From NCBI GenBank assembly GCA_048885535.1, contig JBHLLO010000029.1, forward strand, positions 20,420-35,823: a stretch of DNA of 15,404 nucleotides, written 5' to 3'. Made by a program: the position numbers and the translations under genes. This document shows positions 3,827-14,344 of the stretch, piece after piece. The notes under the pieces are model-generated. The model was not told the DNA's origin. It saw only the letters and a list, made by a program, of their open reading frames with translations, and did not search any database. The DNA comes from Candidatus Hermodarchaeota archaeon (lineage in GTDB: Archaea > Asgardarchaeota > Lokiarchaeia > Sigyniarchaeales > SOKP01). Position 1 is the stretch's first letter; every line of letters starts with the position of its first letter.

Positions 3827-4138
3827 TTAATCTGGAATTCGTTCTATTTTGAAACAAACCGGTCGTATACCGTCTGGACATGCAGTATATATCATATCCT
3901 TTCCAGTCCAAGTAGGAAATCCACCACCACATTGTAGAATAGAAATATTTTTATATAGTCCATACCAAGCATGATGACAGAAGCCCTCAGGCATATTTCC
4001 GCTTTCATCTACTATAAATTCTTTACCTTCAGTCATCCCGCATTTTGTTATGGGTATTCCGTTAGGTCGGATGAATTCATGACCGAGAACATCCTCAGGA
4101 CCAAATTGTTTCACAACTTTAATCTTTATTTTACTCAT
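3827..4138 (-). CDS. TIGR04076-family small Cys-containing protein
   Basis: Pattern KIKIKV...C...G.EF.V......PEGFC..AW...Y.......C.DG.RPV.FKIERI, recognised from memory as TIGR04076-like; paralog of the adjacent ORF. Confidence 0.8.
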   Translation of the reverse strand: MSKIKIKVVKQFGPEDVLGHEFIRPNGIPITKCGMTEGKEFIVDESGNMPEGFCHHAWYGLYKNISILQCGGGFPTWTGKDMIYTACPDGIRPVCFKIERIPD

Positions 4139-4169: not shown

Positions 4170-4481
4170 TTAATCATTAATTCTCTCTAACTTAAAGCAA
4201 ACAGGTTTTCGTCCATCAGAACATGAAGTATGTTGAATTCCTTCCTCGTGTCCATAGAAGTTTCCATTGAAATATAGCACAGATAAGTCTTTATAAATAT
4301 CTCGCCATGCCCAACCGCAAAATCCTTCTGGCATCTTTTCGATATGTTCTACTATAAATTCTTGACCTTCATCAAAAGCGCTACATATTGTGATTTTTGT
4401 ACCATTTTTCGAGTATATTTCATGTCCAAAGACATCAATCGGGCTGAACTTTTTAATTACTGTAATTTTTATTTTTGACAT
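4170..4481 (-). CDS. TIGR04076-family small Cys-containing protein
   Basis: Same pattern (C, MPEGFCGWAW, CSDGRKPVCFKLERI) and same length (103 aa) as its neighbour. Confidence 0.8.
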   Translation of the reverse strand: MSKIKITVIKKFSPIDVFGHEIYSKNGTKITICSAFDEGQEFIVEHIEKMPEGFCGWAWRDIYKDLSVLYFNGNFYGHEEGIQHTSCSDGRKPVCFKLERIND

Positions 4482-6321: not shown

Positions 6322-7029
6322 TTAAACTTTTATTGTATTAAATGAGATTTGAATTTCATTATAAAATTCTTTTATATATGCTCGAATTAATTTTGCTTTT
6401 GATTCAATTTCTTGCTTTTTACCAGCAACTCCTTTAATCTCATCTAAGCTTTCTATCCAAATTCCTTTATAAATATGTTCAGACTCTTGAAACTTTACTT
6501 CTAATTCTTGGCAAAGCAATTCAATGTTTTCTTCAATGATTTCATTTATTGATGTATTTAAAACAATAGTAACCATAAGCAATTCCTTATTCCCTCGGGA
6601 CCACTCAGATTCTATTTCAAAATAGTAATTCATTGATGAAAAAAATATCGTTTGATAAGTAAAAAACTTCTCCCTTGTTGCTATTTCAAAGAGATTACTT
6701 GCATTATATTTTTCTCTCTCAGTAAATACATCTTCTGGATATGAATAAAAAATAAGCGGTCCTTTTTTTCTATGAAAATATGTAAATAGAACTCCTGATT
6801 TTAAAGATATTTTCGCTTCTGGAATTAGAATTAGACTATATGAAGCGTCTGGATTTATTAATTTGTCTTCGAGATATACTTTACTTATTGTAAATTTAGC
6901 TCCATTCTTATGCAGACGAAGTGATTGACTTCTGAGTCCTAATCCTCCATATTTTTTTGCTTCTGAAATTATCTTTTTTCTATCTTTTTCGTGCATTATT
7001 TCCATTTCATGAAATGAAATAAATATCAT
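6322..7029 (-). CDS. Hypothetical protein with a probable longin/uDENN-like C-terminal domain and a possibly degenerate PAS-like N-terminus
   Basis: 235-aa ORF. VLFTYFHRKKGPLIFYSYP resembles the F-x4-GP-x6-P start of longin/uDENN folds, followed by MNYYFEIESEWSRGNKELLMVTIVL. IMHEKDR...RLHKNG resembles PAS/PAC motifs. Domain calls are by eye; start uncertain (several Mets). Confidence 0.6.
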   Translation of the reverse strand: MIFISFHEMEIMHEKDRKKIISEAKKYGGLGLRSQSLRLHKNGAKFTISKVYLEDKLINPDASYSLILIPEAKISLKSGVLFTYFHRKKGPLIFYSYPEDVFTEREKYNASNLFEIATREKFFTYQTIFFSSMNYYFEIESEWSRGNKELLMVTIVLNTSINEIIEENIELLCQELEVKFQESEHIYKGIWIESLDEIKGVAGKKQEIESKAKLIRAYIKEFYNEIQISFNTIKV

Positions 7030-8957: not shown

Positions 8958-9264
8958 AATAAAATTATTTTCTTTCGATTAATGATCTAAATATTTTCTA
9001 AAATATAAAATAAGATATAAGTTAATTAGTAAATTACTATTTCTAGAATTCCTTCTGCTGCAATGAATTATGGATTTAAAAATAAATGTAATACATTATA
9101 CAAACTTTCATTTTTTTTCTACATCCGCATTAATTGAACCAGACGCCCAATTTTCCATACACGTGGTCATATTTAAATCTGCTTATCTCTCAAAAATAAT
9201 GACATTTTTAAGCTAAAAGTCAAAAAGGAAATATTTTTTTAACTGATTATTATTCATTCTTATA

Positions 9265-9888
9265 TCATTTACGGAGGATTTCCTTATACAAAGTCTCGAT
9301 AAATTTTTTAAAATTTTCTTTTGTGAATTCCACAAGTATTTTTGGCATTAGTAATGTTGGAACATATTCCTGGTTTTCATAAATTGGGATGATTTTCACT
9401 TTCTTCGTCTTTCCTAACTGATAAGCAGCTTTCCATTCACCTTTTACTGATTTTGATTTAGTAGCATTCCTAGTACAGAATAGGATAAAGACCTGGCTTA
9501 TTTTCAAAGTTCGCTCCATATAATCAACAACATCTTCACCACTATCGGCTTCCCAATAAAAAACTCTATCGATTTCTGGGTATAATTCTAGATTTTTCGC
9601 AATTTCAGATATTGTAAAATAATTCGAATCCTTCGTTGAGTAACTTAAAAAAATATTAAAACTTTTCGAAAAGCAATTTGTAATACTGTAAATATAGAGA
9701 GCGGATTCACGAATTTCTTCGAGCGTTGCAATATTTTGATCTAACTTAGTTTTGAATGTTCTTAATTTTTCAATATTTTCATTAAAACTTTCCTTATCAG
9801 AGAAAATTTTTGAAAAAATATTTTCCCAATTATATTTCTCTGTGACTATTGGAAGATAGTACTCAATATCTAATTTTATTTTAGTCAT
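9265..9888 (-). CDS. TIR-domain protein with an N-terminal helical segment (probable second half of a Swt1/HEPN-like domain); possibly the C-terminus of the upstream membrane protein
   Basis: TIR box 1 FNIFLSYSTKDS, YMERTLKISQVFILFCT, SKSVKGEWKAA (Glu at the usual catalytic position), KIIPIY, VPTLL; TIR spans about 9265-9660; ATGA overlap with the upstream ORF. Confidence 0.88.
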   Translation of the reverse strand: MTKIKLDIEYYLPIVTEKYNWENIFSKIFSDKESFNENIEKLRTFKTKLDQNIATLEEIRESALYIYSITNCFSKSFNIFLSYSTKDSNYFTISEIAKNLELYPEIDRVFYWEADSGEDVVDYMERTLKISQVFILFCTRNATKSKSVKGEWKAAYQLGKTKKVKIIPIYENQEYVPTLLMPKILVEFTKENFKKFIETLYKEILRK

Positions 9889-12800
9889 ATATTTTCTGGT
9901 AGTTTTTTGATTTTTTCTATTTGAGTTTTAATATTATCTGGTATACCTTTTTTAAACCATTCCTCATTATAATACTCTTTTAATTTTGTTATAATAAAGT
10001 TACTCATCTTGTCCTCAAATTTGGTTAGCTCATTCTTAGCTATAGATTTCTCTTTTTTAAATTGTCTGGATTTTCTAATTTTCTGTTTAGTTATTAAGAT
10101 AACAGTTGAAATTATGGCAATTCCAAGGAAGGAAGTAATTATTAAGATTAACCATTCTCCTGGTATCCCATCTTGTGGAGATCTTATTTTATAAATAAAA
10201 ACATCCTCCCATCCAAGATTACCTAATGTATCGTTTGCATAAAATCTGATCCATACTGCACCTGGAGAAATCTCTTCCCACAGTTCTTGATCTATTATTC
10301 CTACCAAACTTGAAATTGAGATATTAGTATTACCTTCATCTAAAGTATACCAAATCTTATCTAAATTTCCCTCAATCATAGAGAGCTCATATACGGGAGC
10401 TAAATAAAACTCATCATCGCGAGTTGGATCATGGATCGTAATTATTGGTCCTAAAATATCTTTTCTAACTTTTATTTCCTTTATCCCAATATTTCCATCT
10501 GTGTCATTAGCATAAAATTTTATTGTTACAGTTCCATTTCCTACAGTATCCCATAAAGTTTGATATATTGAACCATTATTAGTAAATGTGGTATTAGTAA
10601 TTCCACCATCAAGAGAATACCACATAGCATCTAGAAACAAATCTTCAATCTTTACTATAAAATTAGGGGCAAGTTTTCCAAATAAATTGTTATTTGGATT
10701 TGGAGATATAATTGTAATTATTGGTCCTAAAAGATCAGTTATTGTGACTGTAACAGTATCAGGAATCCCAAATTGATTACGATCATCAAAATATTCTATA
10801 GTATAGCTATAAATACCCTTATTTGTAATATTAACTGGTACGGTAATAAGAGAGTTGTTATACCATGTAGTCCAATTTTTCCATATGTAGAAATTTCCTA
10901 CTGTGTTGTTTGCCAATATTCGATATTTTCCTGCACCAAAATCATCTATTAGTGTCCAATTAATAGTTTTTGGTTTATTAATGTCTATTAATATAGATAT
11001 TGGGTGAGTACACCTTGGTAATCTGTCTACTATTGTAACTATAACAATATTAGGAATGCCATATTGAATGTGATAGTCATAATATTCAATTGTATATTCA
11101 TATGTTCCTGGAGCACTACGATTAATAGGTACGTTAATTAATGTGTTACTTTCCCATGGAGTCCAATTTATACAAGTATAGAAATTTCCAACTGTATTAT
11201 TTGCCAATACACGGTACATTCCCCCACCTAGATCATCATAGAGCGTCCAATTAATAGTTTCAGAACCATTCCTAAATGTTATTATAGAATTTGGATGATT
11301 TGAAGTTGGAACGCTACTTCTTATACGCTGTGCGTAAACATCAGCATGAGATCCGCTCCTTAAATCAGACCACGTGATAATGGCCCCCCCTACTCCGTCA
11401 TTGATCATTTTAGGAGCATTTTGGTCATTATTTGCTAAAGATATGAACGTGCCATTAGCTGTCCACTTAACCATCCCATTAGAATCAATTCGTTGCGCGT
11501 AAATATCGCAGTTAGAACCGCTTCTAAAATCCTCCCAAACAATAATTGCACCACCTACTCCGTGCTTAGTTATTTGAGGGGAAATTTGGTCATTGATTGA
11601 TGTGGATATAGCCGTACCGTTAGGCATCCATTGTGCGTTTCCATTAGAATCGATTCGTTGTGTGTAAATATCGGAATCAAAATCGCTTCTATAATCCCCC
11701 CACGCTATTATTGCGCCTCCTAATCCATCGCTAGTTATTTGAGGTTCTCCTTGGCTTTCGCTTGCGGTGGATATAGCTATACCGTTAGCCATCCATAGGG
11801 TAACCCCGTTGGAATCAATGCGTTGTGCATAAATATCAGAATTCCCTGTCCCATTTCTAGCATCCTCCCATGCAATAATTGCTCCTCCCAATCCGTCGGG
11901 GGCTATCTGAAATCTAAATTGGTGGTTAATGGCAGTACATAAAGCCGTTCCATTAGCAGCCCATTGCGTGATCCCATTAGAATCAATCCGCTGTACATAA
12001 ATATCATAGTCAGTTCCGCTTCTATAATCCCCCCACGCTATTATTGCGCCTCCTGCTCCGTCACTAGTTAATTGAAGATATCTTTGGTTTTCGTTTGCAG
12101 TGGATACAGCCGTACCGTTAGCCATCCACAGGGAAGCCCCATCGGAATCGATACGTTGTGCATAAATATCAGAATTCCCTACCCCATTTCTAGTATCCTC
12201 CCATGCAATAATCGCACCCCCTAATCCGTCGCTGATAATTTGAAGATATCTCTGATCGTTAATTGCTGTAGAAATGATCGTGCCATTAGCTGTCCACTTC
12301 ACCATCCCATTAGAATCGATTCGTTGCGCGTAAATATCCCAGTTAGAACCGCTTCTAAAATCCTCCCAAACAATAACCGCACCCCCTATTCCATCACTGG
12401 CTATTTGGGGAGTCCATTGATGACCACTTGCCATGCTTATGACCGTTCCATTAGCAATCCATTGTGTTATCCCATTATGATTGATTCTTTGAGCATAAAT
12501 ATCCGAATTTGTTCCGCTTCTAAAATCCCACCATGTGATGATCCCACCCCCCGTTCCATCGCTAGTTATTTGAGAAGAATATTGGTCACTAATTGCCGTG
12601 CATATAACCTTGCCATTAGCCGTCCATTTTGGGATTCCATTAGAATCTATTAATGTAGAATAAATGTCTGAAAATAATCCACTCCTAAAATCTTCCCACG
12701 TAATAATAGCATCACCTTTTCCGTTGTTGGTTATTTGAACATCTACTTGTTCCCCACTTGCCGTGATTATAGCCGTACCATTACCAATATACTGCGGGTT

Positions 12801-14120
12801 TCCTTCGGAATCGATCCGTTGTGCGTAAATATCGTAACCTCCAATTGCATTATTTGACCAAACAATGATCGCTCCCCCTACTCCATCACTGGTTATTTTA
12901 GGAGACAATTGGGAACCACTTGCGGTTGATATAGCCATTCCATCAACAGTCCACTGCACATTTCCTTTGGAATCGATCCGTTGTGCGTAAATATCTTGAC
13001 CTGAAATACTGCTTCTATAATCCCACCATGTGATGATCCCACCCCCTGCTCCATCATTGATAATTTGAGGATTTTCTTGTGTACCGCTTGCTGCACATAC
13101 GGATGTGCCATTTGCTGTCCATTGCACGATCCCATTGGCATCGATCCTTTGAGCGTAAATGTCGTAACTCACTCCACTTCTAGAATCTTTCCATGCTATA
13201 ATAGCACCCCCTCCTCCATCACTGGTTATTCTAGGAGACAATTGGGAACCACTTGCAATGCTTATGACCGTCCCATTAGCAATCCACTGTGTTATCCCAT
13301 TATGATTGATTCTTTGAGCATAAATATGCAAATTTGTTCCGCTTCTATAATCCTGCCATGCAATGATAGCACCCCCTACTCCGTCGCAAGTCATTTGAGG
13401 AATCATCTGGTTATGGGTTTCAGTACTAATGATAGTACCGTTAGCCATCCACTGCGTAATCCCGTTGGAGTCGATCCGCTGTGCGTAAATATCATATCCT
13501 GAAGTTTCGATGCTTCTCGCATCCCACCATGCAATGATTGCACCCCCTGCTCCATCGCTGGTTAATTGAGGGTCTATTTGGTCTTCACTTGCAGTGCTTA
13601 TAGCAATCCCATTGGTAGTCCACTGCACGATCCCATTAGAAGCGATCCGCTGAGCGTAAATATCGTAGTCAGTTCCACTTCTATAATCATTCCACACAAT
13701 GATTGCCCCGCCTCTTCCATCGCTAATTATTTGGGGATCTCTTTGATCATTATTTACTGTACTTATTGCTGTACCATTATCTATCCACTGTGCGATCCCG
13801 TTAGAATCAATCCGCTGTACGTAAATATCATAGTCAGTTCCGCTTCTATAATCATGCCACACAATAATAACGCCTCCTTCCCCATCATTGGTTAATTGAG
13901 GGTCTCTTTGGTCATCTACTGCCTTGGTAACGACTGTTCCATTAGGCGCCCATGAAAGTGTAGAGGATAATGAAGGGATATCTTTTTTAGATTTTAATAA
14001 GTCTTCGGGAGCTTGGTTCTTTGAGAAAAAAAATTGATTTAAGTTTATATTGATTATAATGAAAGAATGTGAAATTACCAGTAATATAAAGATTAAATAT
14101 TTGAAATTTTTATTCTTAAA
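9885..14120 (-). CDS. Giant single-pass membrane/surface protein: signal-peptide-like N-terminus, 16 beta-propeller-type repeats, 4 Ig-like domains, TM helix, cytoplasmic tail
   Basis: The frame is open beyond the ORF-track GTG (13862) up to 14123, adding most of repeat 1 and KNKNFKYLIFILLVISHSFIII. Two pairs of ~90-95-aa beta-rich repeats (TINWTL.DD.G.G.YR.LANNTVGNFY; GPIITI..P...WY.LD.G...FYANDT.GN.G). GIPG-WLILIITSFLGIAIISTVILIT-KQKIRK TM at about 10089-10154. Start codon unresolved. Confidence 0.85.
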   Translation of the reverse strand, partial: FKNKNFKYLIFILLVISHSFIIININLNQFFFSKNQAPEDLLKSKKDIPSLSSTLSWAPNGTVVTKAVDDQRDPQLTNDGEGGVIIVWHDYRSGTDYDIYVQRIDSNGIAQWIDNGTAISTVNNDQRDPQIISDGRGGAIIVWNDYRSGTDYDIYAQRIASNGIVQWTTNGIAISTASEDQIDPQLTSDGAGGAIIAWWDARSIETSGYDIYAQRIDSNGITQWMANGTIISTETHNQMIPQMTCDGVGGAIIAWQDYRSGTNLHIYAQRINHNGITQWIANGTVISIASGSQLSPRITSDGGGGAIIAWKDSRSGVSYDIYAQRIDANGIVQWTANGTSVCAASGTQENPQIINDGAGGGIITWWDYRSSISGQDIYAQRIDSKGNVQWTVDGMAISTASGSQLSPKITSDGVGGAIIVWSNNAIGGYDIYAQRIDSEGNPQYIGNGTAIITASGEQVDVQITNNGKGDAIITWEDFRSGLFSDIYSTLIDSNGIPKWTANGKVICTAISDQYSSQITSDGTGGGIITWWDFRSGTNSDIYAQRINHNGITQWIANGTVISMASGHQWTPQIASDGIGGAVIVWEDFRSGSNWDIYAQRIDSNGMVKWTANGTIISTAINDQRYLQIISDGLGGAIIAWEDTRNGVGNSDIYAQRIDSDGASLWMANGTAVSTANENQRYLQLTSDGAGGAIIAWGDYRSGTDYDIYVQRIDSNGITQWAANGTALCTAINHQFRFQIAPDGLGGAIIAWEDARNGTGNSDIYAQRIDSNGVTLWMANGIAISTASESQGEPQITSDGLGGAIIAWGDYRSDFDSDIYTQRIDSNGNAQWMPNGTAISTSINDQISPQITKHGVGGAIIVWEDFRSGSNCDIYAQRIDSNGMVKWTANGTFISLANNDQNAPKMINDGVGGAIITWSDLRSGSHADVYAQRIRSSVPTSNHPNSIITFRNGSETINWTLYDDLGGGMYRVLANNTVGNFYTCINWTPWESNTLINVPINRSAPGTYEYTIEYYDYHIQYGIPNIVIVTIVDRLPRCTHPISILIDINKPKTINWTLIDDFGAGKYRILANNTVGNFYIWKNWTTWYNNSLITVPVNITNKGIYSYTIEYFDDRNQFGIPDTVTVTITDLLGPIITIISPNPNNNLFGKLAPNFIVKIEDLFLDAMWYSLDGGITNTTFTNNGSIYQTLWDTVGNGTVTIKFYANDTDGNIGIKEIKVRKDILGPIITIHDPTRDDEFYLAPVYELSMIEGNLDKIWYTLDEGNTNISISSLVGIIDQELWEEISPGAVWIRFYANDTLGNLGWEDVFIYKIRSPQDGIPGEWLILIITSFLGIAIISTVILITKQKIRKSRQFKKEKSIAKNELTKFEDKMSNFIITKLKEYYNEEWFKKGIPDNIKTQIEKIKKLPENI
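11313..13952 (-). repeat. Intragenic array of 16 ~165-nt (~55-aa) repeats
   Basis: Consensus W.ANGT.ISTA...Q..PQI.SDG.GGAII.W.D.RSG...DIYAQRIDSNG..Q, counted by hand 16 times including the upstream extension. Confidence 0.92.
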
Positions 14121-14344
14121 ATCTTACACCTATTTAGAGATTATTATGATTTATTAATGAATTTATAAACTGACAATTATGTAATAACATGTATGAAAAA
14201 TTCTGAAAGTTTTTATGCTTAATAGCTCTCTCTTACAGATTACATCAAAAATTTTTTGGATTAATTATGAAATTGATAAAAAAGTATTTAATATTTATGT
14301 AAAGACAATCCAAGGCTCTTAAACATTTATTCTTAAATAGTTAT

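Follow-up and report, generated by a model that had tools for sequence, protein, structure and literature searches.

A predicted two-chain membrane receptor with a cytoplasmic TIR domain and its single-chain relatives in Loki-type Asgard archaea

Two overlapping frames and the domains they encode

The stretch of DNA analysed here (15,404 nucleotides, hereafter the window) comes from a genome of a Candidatus Hermodarchaeota archaeon and carries on its minus strand a pair of overlapping genes, of which the first encodes a large protein with a predicted single transmembrane (TM) helix (chain A) and the second a small protein with a TIR domain (chain B). The window corresponds to C29:20420-35823 of the 3.09-Mb genome, which comprises 112 contigs and is 91.6% complete; protein searches place among its relatives metagenome-assembled genomes (MAGs) titled Promethearchaeota, Promethearchaeia or Candidatus Lokiarchaeota. 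We consider it rather likely that the two genes together encode, on two chains, a single-pass membrane receptor with a cytoplasmic TIR domain that related archaea make as one polypeptide. The features of the pair, with open reading frames abbreviated as ORFs and lengths in amino acids as aa, are as follows.

9888-14123, minus strand: open frame of chain A, stop-to-stop, 1,412 codons
14043..14099, minus strand: hydrophobic, signal-peptide-like N-terminal segment YLIFILLVISHSFIIININ, residues 9-27
11319..13955, minus strand: 16 repeats of about 55 residues, residues 57-935, read as two eight-bladed beta-propellers from a model of eight of the repeats
10731..11318, minus strand: two type A beta-sandwich (Ig-like) units, residues 936-1131, recognised by their mutual identity, the first modelled as a 7-stranded sandwich
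10188..10730, minus strand: two type B units, residues 1132-1312, a presumed Ig-like stalk, recognised by their mutual identity and shared with a 1,018-aa protein of the same genome
10089..10151, minus strand: single TM helix LILIITSFLGIAIISTVILIT, residues 1325-1345, from a Kyte-Doolittle scan
9888..10088, minus strand: basic, predicted cytoplasmic tail of 67 residues, read as the N-terminal half of a degenerate Swt1-like HEPN helical module from its collinearity with fused relatives
9885..9888, minus strand: ATGA overlap of the stop codon of chain A and the start codon of chain B, also found in a paralogous pair (C95) and identical (0 differences) in the contigs of 4 sequencing runs
9265-9888, minus strand: 207-aa TIR ORF (chain B)
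9664..9888, minus strand: N-terminal part of the TIR ORF, in which alignments show the arginine of the HEPN motif position kept and the histidine lost, and which holds interface residues 4-74 of the complex model
9310..9654, minus strand: TIR domain, residues 79-193 of the 207-aa ORF, by Pfam TIR_2
9436..9438, minus strand: codon of Glu151, the catalytic position of TIR NADases, invariant in relatives and aligned to the glutamate of Cat1

The repeats of chain A are marked by DIYAQRI-type anchors (n=16), which recur with a spacing of 54-57 residues over residues 57-935. An AlphaFold2 model of repeats 9-16 together with the unit that follows them, built from an alignment of 13 sequences (predicted local distance difference test, pLDDT, 91.3; predicted template-modelling score, pTM, 0.85), consists of eight four-stranded blades and then a 7-stranded beta-sandwich. 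Since the eight modelled repeats form eight blades and 16 repeats are present, the repeat region probably comprises two eight-bladed propellers. Foldseek searches with this ectodomain model retrieved beta-propellers, including CylK (E 1.7e-12), sialidases, TolB, the designed eight-bladed Cake8 and the periplasmic sensor BT4663; the latter and its counterpart BT4673 stand at ranks 8 and 29 with template-modelling scores (TM-scores) of 0.13-0.19, at which only the fold class is shared. The NCBIfam model for an archaeal beta-propeller repeat, TIGR04275, matches with E 5.4e-18, under its cut-off, and a search of the ESM Atlas with repeats 9-16 returned only unnamed or 'TolB family' clusters at 0.91-0.92, which are a lead at best. 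Pfam detects no leucine-rich repeats (LRRs) in the large ORF, unlike the ectodomains of Toll-like receptors (TLRs).

Between the repeats and the membrane lie the two type A units, which are 58% identical to each other (55/95), and the two type B units, which share 42% identity (38/91) and also precede the TM helix in the fused 1,018-aa TIR protein of the same genome. The 15 residues before the TM helix contain 2 lysines or arginines and the 15 after it contain 8, and N-x-S/T sequons are distributed similarly unevenly, with 29 in the 1,289-residue ectodomain against 1 in 274 cytoplasmic residues. In view of these two biases the TIR-bearing end is predicted to be cytoplasmic. An earlier reading of the window from its letters and ORF translations (the sequence-only reading) had described a signal-like N-terminus, 16 repeats, four Ig-like units, a single TM helix of positive-inside character and a tail abutting a TIR ORF that keeps the glutamate of the motif SKSVKGEWKAA. 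The signal-like segment, the repeats, the helix and the abutting tail are all found on the minus strand; the Ig-like units are present as two pairs, the sandwich fold having been modelled for the first of the four only; and the charge bias agrees with a tail on the inside. Its assignment of the DNA to an Asgard-like archaeon is confirmed by the titles of the related MAGs.

The TIR ORF lies in the frame of the large ORF minus 1. Its domain matches Pfam TIR_2 (PF13676) with E 1.5e-14 and 54.9 bits against a cut-off of 28, over profile positions 1-114 of 122, and the fold of a fused relative, described below, gives the same assignment, in keeping with the TIR identity first read from the sequence. 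The glutamate singled out there is E151, which is invariant in 8/8 and in 10/10 aligned sequences, aligns with the glutamate of a WDEL stretch in Cat1, a CRISPR-associated TIR NADase, and in the model of the fused relative is located in the helix after the third strand. When the TIR alignment was used to search PDB sequences, Cat1 was the only match (E 0.0054). PADLOC profiles gave weak matches to the TIR ORF, namely bSEFIR (E 1.2e-6), ThsB (E 3.1e-5 and 7.3e-5) and TIR-NLR, and one of PDC-M34B to the tail; the 2TM_1TM_TIR model (Rst_2TM_1TM_TIR) was not among the PADLOC matches, the presence of that model in the library copy not having been checked.

Fused relatives and the split helical module

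Homologs of the TIR ORF were sought in 154 genomes of the same order. The six closest ones outside the window's genome, with 46-55% identity over TIR-ORF residues 6-206, are the C-termini of single open frames of 1,697, 1,802, 1,608, 1,250, 1,001 and 1,642 aa, of which the 1,001-aa frame is cut by its contig end. Each of them has one TM helix in its body about 280-290 residues from the C-terminus, and in 4/6 an N-terminal hydrophobic segment was seen in at least one of two scans. Their order of elements is signal, ectodomain, TM helix, degenerate Swt1-like HEPN module and TIR. The tail of chain A followed by the TIR ORF aligns end to end with the last approximately 280-290 residues of all six, with the break falling in a loop, and on account of this collinearity we regard the window pair as a split gene. 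Linkage of the TIR ORF to a TM protein, on which the receptor idea of the sequence-only reading hinged, thus occurs in single chains of these six homologs and in the 1,018-aa protein of the window's own genome.

The region between TM helix and TIR domain in the closest fused relative matches Pfam HEPN_Swt1 (PF18731) with E 6.3e-6 and 26.9 bits over profile positions 8-86 of 115, followed by TIR_2 with E 9.7e-16. HEPN_Swt1 is detected at E<=0.05 in 8/10 members, the remaining two having a PCI-like linker, and Pfam returned no HEPN hit for either of the separate halves in the window, that is, the tail and the N-terminus of the TIR ORF. The window's module differs from the family in being divided over two polypeptides. 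At what we take to be the position of the Rx4-6H motif in the HEPN_Swt1 profile, the conserved arginine is kept in 6/10 aligned sequences and a histidine 4-6 residues after it occurs in 0/10; the module is therefore best not regarded as a HEPN RNase. In keeping with this, the available part of a published account describes Rx4-6H as only partly conserved in Swt1-like HEPN domains and infers that the eukaryotic Swt1 copy is inactive (Anantharaman et al. 2013, PMC3710099). The HEPN-like label first given to this region thus holds in the form of a sub-threshold match in the fused relatives, and lapses for the window halves and for the motif.

The cytoplasmic part of a fused relative, 54% identical to the window's TIR ORF, was modelled with AlphaFold2 (pLDDT 83.2) as helices over residues 12-144 followed by a TIR fold; the window's ORF itself was folded within a complex run (pLDDT 89). 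In VIA-align comparisons the TIR domain of this relative is closest to Cat1 (Z 14.8, root-mean-square deviation 1.8, 116 residues), RPS4/RRS1 (Z 14.4) and MyD88 (Z 14.2), followed by SARM1 TIR (Z 12.7) and ThsB (Z 12.4). TLR1, TLR2, Hydra TRR-2, IL-18Rbeta and IL-1RAcPb are further fold matches, and Foldseek target TM-scores to MyD88 and AbTir are 0.71-0.74.

Several observations bear on the age of the split. In the C95 paralog a frame of 1,289 codons is likewise followed by a TIR ORF, of 216 aa, with the two joined by ATGA. Between the window and C95 the TIR ORFs are 64% identical, with nonsynonymous (dN) and synonymous (dS) divergences of 0.232 and 1.42 (dN/dS ~0.16), and the large ORFs are 46% identical with dN 0.50, dS ~1.98 (near saturation) and dN/dS ~0.25, without internal stops. 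A third split-type ORF of 216 aa, P0023, occurs among 1.84 billion representatives. It was called as a separate gene with its start at the equivalent Met-Thr-Lys, shows 55% and 61% identity to the two paralogs and falls in a cluster with 3 members from other collections. These sequence comparisons indicate that the pair is a stable and old split of an ancestrally fused gene, maintained under purifying selection.

Two alternative views of the junction can be assessed here. One is that a programmed -1 ribosomal frameshift at the overlap lets both ORFs be read as a single protein of ~1,619 aa, which would suit the relation of the two frames and the fact that their products are halves of one domain. 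Neither junction (GAAAATATATGA in the window, GGTAAGAAATGA in C95) contains a slippery heptamer of the form X XXY YYZ, and in C95 a TAA closes the -1 frame two codons ahead of the ATG, so that there is hardly any space in which a shift could occur; on these two grounds we judge frameshifting very unlikely. Further against it, a conserved Met-Thr/Ser-Lys-x-Lys opens both TIR ORFs, and that methionine is where P0023, called as its own gene, begins. Of the two forms left open by the sequence-only reading, a fusion of about 1,620 aa or a coupled pair, it is the pair that is favoured by the ATGA overlap and the conserved split.

The other view, that the two genes are functionally unrelated, would make chain A a surface adhesin or S-layer-type propeller and chain B a soluble ThsB-like defence TIR that happens to lie downstream. 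In its favour, stand-alone propeller ectodomain proteins of ~530-660 aa are common, being present in 130/154 genomes of the order, and the TIR ORF has the weak ThsB and bSEFIR matches given above. It is hard to reconcile with the tail and the N-terminus of the TIR ORF being halves of a module that six fused relatives have in one piece, with the retention of the 4-base overlap in the paralog, and with the lack of a ThsA-type partner or effector gene among the window neighbours of the TIR ORF, and we hold it to be highly improbable.

The split gene reading leads to the question of how the two chains would meet. Complex prediction with a 71-residue tail piece and the TIR ORF gave interaction scores from aligned errors (ipSAE) of 0.75, 0.75 and 0.78, while the best of 3 controls reached 0.01; the runs agreed in at least 91% of contacts, with a partner pLDDT of at least 88. 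The mark used for ipSAE was reached by 58/80 solved complexes and 2/110 mismatched pairs, a calibration that is rough here because our own alignments were used. The predicted interface joins residues 9-64 of the tail piece with residues 4-74 of the TIR ORF. From this model the two halves are predicted to re-associate into one helical domain that tethers the TIR domain to the receptor.

Distribution of the layout and surroundings of the genes

The window's genome holds 9 TIR_2 matches in 8 proteins, among which are both split pairs and three smaller proteins. A fused protein of 1,018 aa (C47:11600-14653) consists of a signal, a propeller with GLAVIDISDPTNP-type repeats, two type B Ig-like units, a TM helix and TIR, and a protein of 1,738 aa (C47:2451-7664) has ~1,400 residues of LRRs and then TIR without a TM helix. 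Another protein (C9:30580-33948, 1,123 aa), whose non-TIR domains were assigned by eye, has a TIR-NTPase-LRR order and resembles a plant TNL or a bacterial TIR-NLR in layout.

Related loci in named MAGs were retrieved with an alignment as query, a single-protein query having given none. A TM helix lies upstream of TIR in the same ORF in 16/23 of these loci, several of which come from the same genomes and six of which repeat the fused ORFs described above. The ectodomains of the TM-TIR ORFs are NosD/beta-helix, Peripla_BP_6 with beta-helix, or SBBP, and the ORFs without a TM helix are LRR-PCI-TIR or small proteins.

When the 1.84 billion representatives were searched with a profile of the cytoplasmic part, 2,110 matched at E<=0.001, 648 at E<=1e-10 and 156 at E<=1e-30. 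Among the best 150 of the 2,110, 58 show an ectodomain-TM-TIR order, with 150 aa or more ahead of a single TM helix and 120 or more cytoplasmic residues behind it, and 35 of these 58 also have an N-terminal hydrophobic segment; the others comprise 9 with a short N-terminus and a TM helix, 8 with multiple TM helices, 6 of other kinds and 69 without a TM helix. Lysines and arginines in the 58 average 0.98 over the 15 residues that precede the TM helix and 5.10 over the 15 that follow it. TIR_2 scores above its cut-off in 35/35 full-length representatives. NosD/beta-helix is found in 27/35, joined in some by SBP_bac_5 (2), PKD (2), Peripla_BP_6 with fn3 (1) or WD40 (1), and the 8/35 that lack it have SBP_bac_5 (2), FG-GAP (1), SBBP (1) or no named ectodomain family (4). 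Four examples are named by NCBI after the ectodomain only, for instance as 'ABC transporter substrate-binding protein', a practice that would make the family easy to overlook.

Across the phylum, the TIR subfamily (E<=1e-15) is present in 74 of 332 genomes that are at least 80% complete. With the window's genome set aside, it occurs in 63/117 genomes of its own family and 5/11 of the other matching family of the order, in 4/5 of two other families of the class and in 1/19 of one family of another class; the remaining families have none (e.g. 0/71 and 0/27). By these counts it is a lineage-specific expansion, almost entirely within the window's class (Promethearchaeia), and because the subfamily is almost confined to one Asgard class we view it as an analogue of TLRs and not as their ancestor.

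Some related genes depart from the receptor layout. Two loci of the window's genus (L051:1328-3535 and L052:1276-3525) encode cytosolic proteins of 736-750 aa with LRRs, the same HEPN-like module and TIR, and without a TM helix; the HEPN-TIR cassette is therefore coupled to intracellular LRR sensors as well. In L064 (5959-7396) a beta-helix/TM ORF is separated by a gap of ~100 nt from a wHTH/PCI-like TIR ORF, with short ORFs in several frames upstream, an arrangement that reflects either another split of independent origin or degradation of the gene.

Two kinds of gene recur beside the TM-TIR genes of relatives. One, an 838-aa protein with RelA_SpoT, TPR and LSDAT_prok (SLOG) domains, is encoded a few kb from TM-TIR genes in 3/15 relatives' loci. 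SLOG domains bind nucleotide-derived ligands in other systems, and by analogy the protein is a candidate reader of a TIR product. The other is an ORF of ~478-526 aa that fits no clear Pfam family; in 4/15 loci it immediately follows a fused HEPN-TIR receptor gene. A 67%-identical copy of the 526-aa ORF is located at the end of another contig of the window's genome (C104, 5690-7267), with its upstream side unassembled; the ORF looks like a conserved neighbour and not like a partner.

L057:8033-10546, strand not stated: RelA/SpoT-TPR-SLOG gene near TM-TIR genes
L062:10161-12731, strand not stated: RelA/SpoT-TPR-SLOG gene near TM-TIR genes
L069:7861-10446, strand not stated: RelA/SpoT-TPR-SLOG gene near TM-TIR genes
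L058:6959-8392, strand not stated: ~478-526-aa ORF downstream of a receptor gene
L059:7716-9293, strand not stated: ~478-526-aa ORF downstream of a receptor gene
L060:7689-9266, strand not stated: ~478-526-aa ORF downstream of a receptor gene
L062:7914-9491, strand not stated: ~478-526-aa ORF downstream of a receptor gene

In the window, the pair is neighboured by genes for aIF5B, the CCA-adding enzyme, small GTPases and UvrA, and EF-2 is also encoded. The GTPases include two tandem Ras/Roc-family members on the plus strand (186-734 and 828-1367; 182 and 179 aa; Pfam Ras E 2e-39 and 9.6e-40), and a similar small GTPase lies near fused TM-TIR genes in 3 relatives' loci (L057, L066, L067). On the minus strand, tandem paralogous ORFs of 103 aa (3827-4138 and 4170-4481) are rich in cysteine and histidine and are without a Pfam match, as is a 235-aa ORF (6322-7029) between the CCA-adding enzyme and aIF5B. 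G+C is 0.40-0.44 in the propeller-repeat part (11001-14000) against 0.26-0.34 in most of the window, which may reflect the Gly/Ala-rich composition of the repeats or a different origin of the ectodomain.

A proposed receptor, its alternatives and its place among TIR systems

TIR domains are activated by clustering in SARM1, plant TIRs, Thoeris, Cat1 and TLRs, and ATGA is the classic arrangement for coupling by termination and reinitiation. Against this background the two-chain receptor could be put together as follows. Chain A would contribute the signal-like N-terminus, the two eight-bladed propellers, the four beta-sandwich-type units, the TM helix and the 67-residue basic tail, which would be the first half of a non-catalytic Swt1-type HEPN-like helical module. 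Chain B starts inside the stop codon of chain A, for which termination-reinitiation is the simple reading, and would supply the second half of the module together with a TIR_2 domain bearing the catalytic-position glutamate. Binding of a ligand or particle by the ectodomain would change receptor clustering and bring TIR domains together, and the resulting cleavage of nicotinamide adenine dinucleotide (NAD+) might either deplete NAD+ or yield a nucleotide signal. The outcome would be a surface-triggered defence or recognition response, for which both antiviral and cell-cell or partner sensing can be considered. Ligand sensing and signalling by the locus are suggested here by analogy with those systems.

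In an alternative to the enzymatic part of this scheme, the TIR domain would be a non-enzymatic scaffold, as in animal TLRs, that recruits other TIR proteins of the cell and does not cleave NAD+. The varied TIR repertoire of the genome (the 9 matches in 8 proteins, including the TIR-NTPase-LRR protein and small soluble TIRs) would offer partners for such recruitment, and the MyD88 and MAL TIR filaments are among the top Foldseek hits. Structural scores do not separate the two groups, with Z 12-15 for enzymatic and scaffold TIRs alike. What speaks for an enzyme is the NADase-type glutamate, which is invariant in the subfamily and which, in the available part of a published survey, is described as critical for NADase activity (PMC7075850), and we regard a pure scaffold as distinctly unlikely.

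A different kind of alternative concerns the integrity of the window copy, whose upstream end reads as follows.

14127..14131, minus strand: Shine-Dalgarno-like AGGTG upstream of the large frame, read directly
14118..14126, minus strand: in-frame TAA (14126-14124), GAT, then TTT (14120-14118) at the expected start, from the sequence

In the C95 paralog, which is intact and has a proper ATG and the signal-like start MKSKREIRVISLILITV, AGGTG and 6 nt are followed by ATG. In the window the same AGGTG and 6 nt are followed by TTT. The start that the sequence-only reading had placed at 14120 is this TTT and has to be given up: no ATG, GTG or TTG occurs between the in-frame TAA and a GTG at 13862. 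Contigs from 4 sediment metagenome runs (Logan) show 0 differences from the window over 13824-14200 and 9200-10366, and therefore neither the TAA nor the ATGA junction is an assembly slip; the 4 runs are all from one study and three of them may be the source of the assembly.

These observations give substance to the view that the window copy is a decaying pseudogene, a fused receptor gene broken by a frameshift and by loss of its start, with no working receptor as its product. The signal-like N-terminus has no canonical start, the TTT and the TAA before it are reproduced in the contigs of the 4 runs, fused forms are the rule in relatives, and L064 shows a fragmented beta-helix/TM ORF, a gap and a TIR ORF. 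The ATGA split is, for its part, common to two paralogs that have diverged to 64% (TIR ORF) and 46% (large ORF) identity without internal stops, dN/dS is ~0.16 and ~0.25 respectively, a third lineage (P0023) keeps the same start position, and the loss of the start codon could be recent and touches the window copy only. We consider decay of the locus unlikely.

The two-chain receptor remains the interpretation that we prefer, and the following points weigh against it. In the window copy the position of the paralog's ATG is occupied by TTT, with an in-frame TAA two codons earlier and no canonical start before residue 88 of the open frame. Lacking such a start codon, this copy is possibly impaired, and its chain A may fail to be exported or even to be made, may be inactive or may start at a non-canonical codon. 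None of the runs listed as holding the region is an RNA run. TM helices throughout were called with our own Kyte-Doolittle script (19-residue window, threshold 1.8) and not with a trained predictor. The 26.9 bits of the HEPN_Swt1 match in the closest fused relative fall just under the cut-off of 27.5, and the VIA-align rows cover the TIR range only (residues 148-280), with the helical part outside. Because the halves of a split domain are expected to score well, the docking result measures likeness to an intact domain and not binding. NADase activity of the TIR ORF is suggested by one conserved residue. Among the neighbours of the window pair and of C95 no conserved effector gene was found adjoining either split locus, and a search of the window's genome, at its 91.6% completeness, found no RelA/SpoT-TPR-SLOG gene at E<=1e-5.

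The closest parallel in layout is the animal TLR and interleukin-1 receptor family, which shares the signal peptide, a large ectodomain of repeat or Ig type, one TM helix and a cytoplasmic TIR. Judged by hydropathy and the positive-inside rule, the TLR-like single chain is present in the fused relatives and in the 1,018-aa protein, and not in the window pair. The archaeal proteins differ from TLRs in having ectodomains of propeller and beta-sandwich type, or of beta-helix or solute-binding type in relatives, in place of LRRs; in a TIR of the prokaryotic TIR_2 type with a catalytic glutamate; and in a helical HEPN-like module between TM helix and TIR, the TIR of the window being moreover on a separate chain. 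As the subfamily is almost confined to one Asgard class, the likeness is convergent, a matter of analogy and not of descent. The prokaryotic analogue of an animal immune receptor first suggested for this locus is therefore borne out in its layout, and confinement to one lineage makes it an analogy.

Among enzymatic TIRs, ThsB, Cat1, SARM1, AbTir and the plant proteins share the fold and the position of the glutamate with the archaeal family, and differ in being cytosolic and triggered by intracellular cues or second messengers; sequence likeness of the window's TIR to them is weak, as in the single PDB match to Cat1, and no ThsA-like effector adjoins it. The Bacteroides hybrid two-component sensors BT4663 and BT4673 have a propeller-based glycan-sensing ectodomain, a TM helix and cytoplasmic signalling domains, their output being a histidine kinase and response regulator and not TIR. 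Bacterial receptor-like TIR-ParA systems combine a single-TM protein that has a variable extracellular sensor with a TIR effector, and have been proposed to intercept signals from outside (10.64898/2026.10.19.760177). As described in the available part of that report, the sensor is a type II membrane protein whose cytoplasmic part is a ParA NTPase, and the TIR belongs to another component of the system (10.64898/2026.10.19.760177), whereas the window encodes a type I receptor with no NTPase, to which TIR is fused (in relatives) or predicted to be docked via the split helical module. Dictyostelium TirC is a TIR NADase tethered to the membrane by a single hydrophobic helix, and the tether has been suggested to restrain its activity (PMC13142454). 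It has, according to the portion of that work at hand, only an N-terminal anchor helix and no ectodomain, and derives from TIRs of the bacterial CAP12/Pycsar type (PMC13142454).

A search of the full-text literature, with many subscription journals and supplements such as those of PMC11291487 outside its reach, found no description of archaeal ectodomain-TM-TIR proteins. In the available part of a survey of Asgard defence systems, TIR appears only in system names (PMC11291487), and that of a survey of TIR proteins presents prokaryotic architectures as diverse without describing the ectodomain-TM-TIR layout (PMC7075850). We rate the coupling of a TIR effector to a sensor as known, and the type I receptor layout and the docking by a split domain as apparently new.

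More tentatively, it is plausible that Loki-type Asgard archaea evolved a large and diversifying family of type I TIR receptors, of which the window represents a derived split into receptor and adaptor through domain complementation. The receptor would keep half of a dead HEPN module as a docking site, and a co-translated soluble TIR 'adaptor' would bring the other half. With ectodomains built of propellers, beta-helices, PKD/Ig units and solute-binding domains and a TIR domain as the cytoplasmic output, this would be a case of outside-in TIR signalling in a prokaryote.

Prokaryotic TIRs are viewed mainly as cytosolic anti-phage components, and surface TIR receptors count as an invention of animals. 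The same receptor layout recurs many times within the window's archaeal class, with swapped ectodomains that include classic ligand-binding solute-binding domains. The two-chain form would be a natural split-domain docking device. If signalling across the membrane holds true, the family would represent a surface-triggered TIR response in archaea and a clean case of convergent receptor design, and would offer a tractable system for how clustering controls TIR enzymes.

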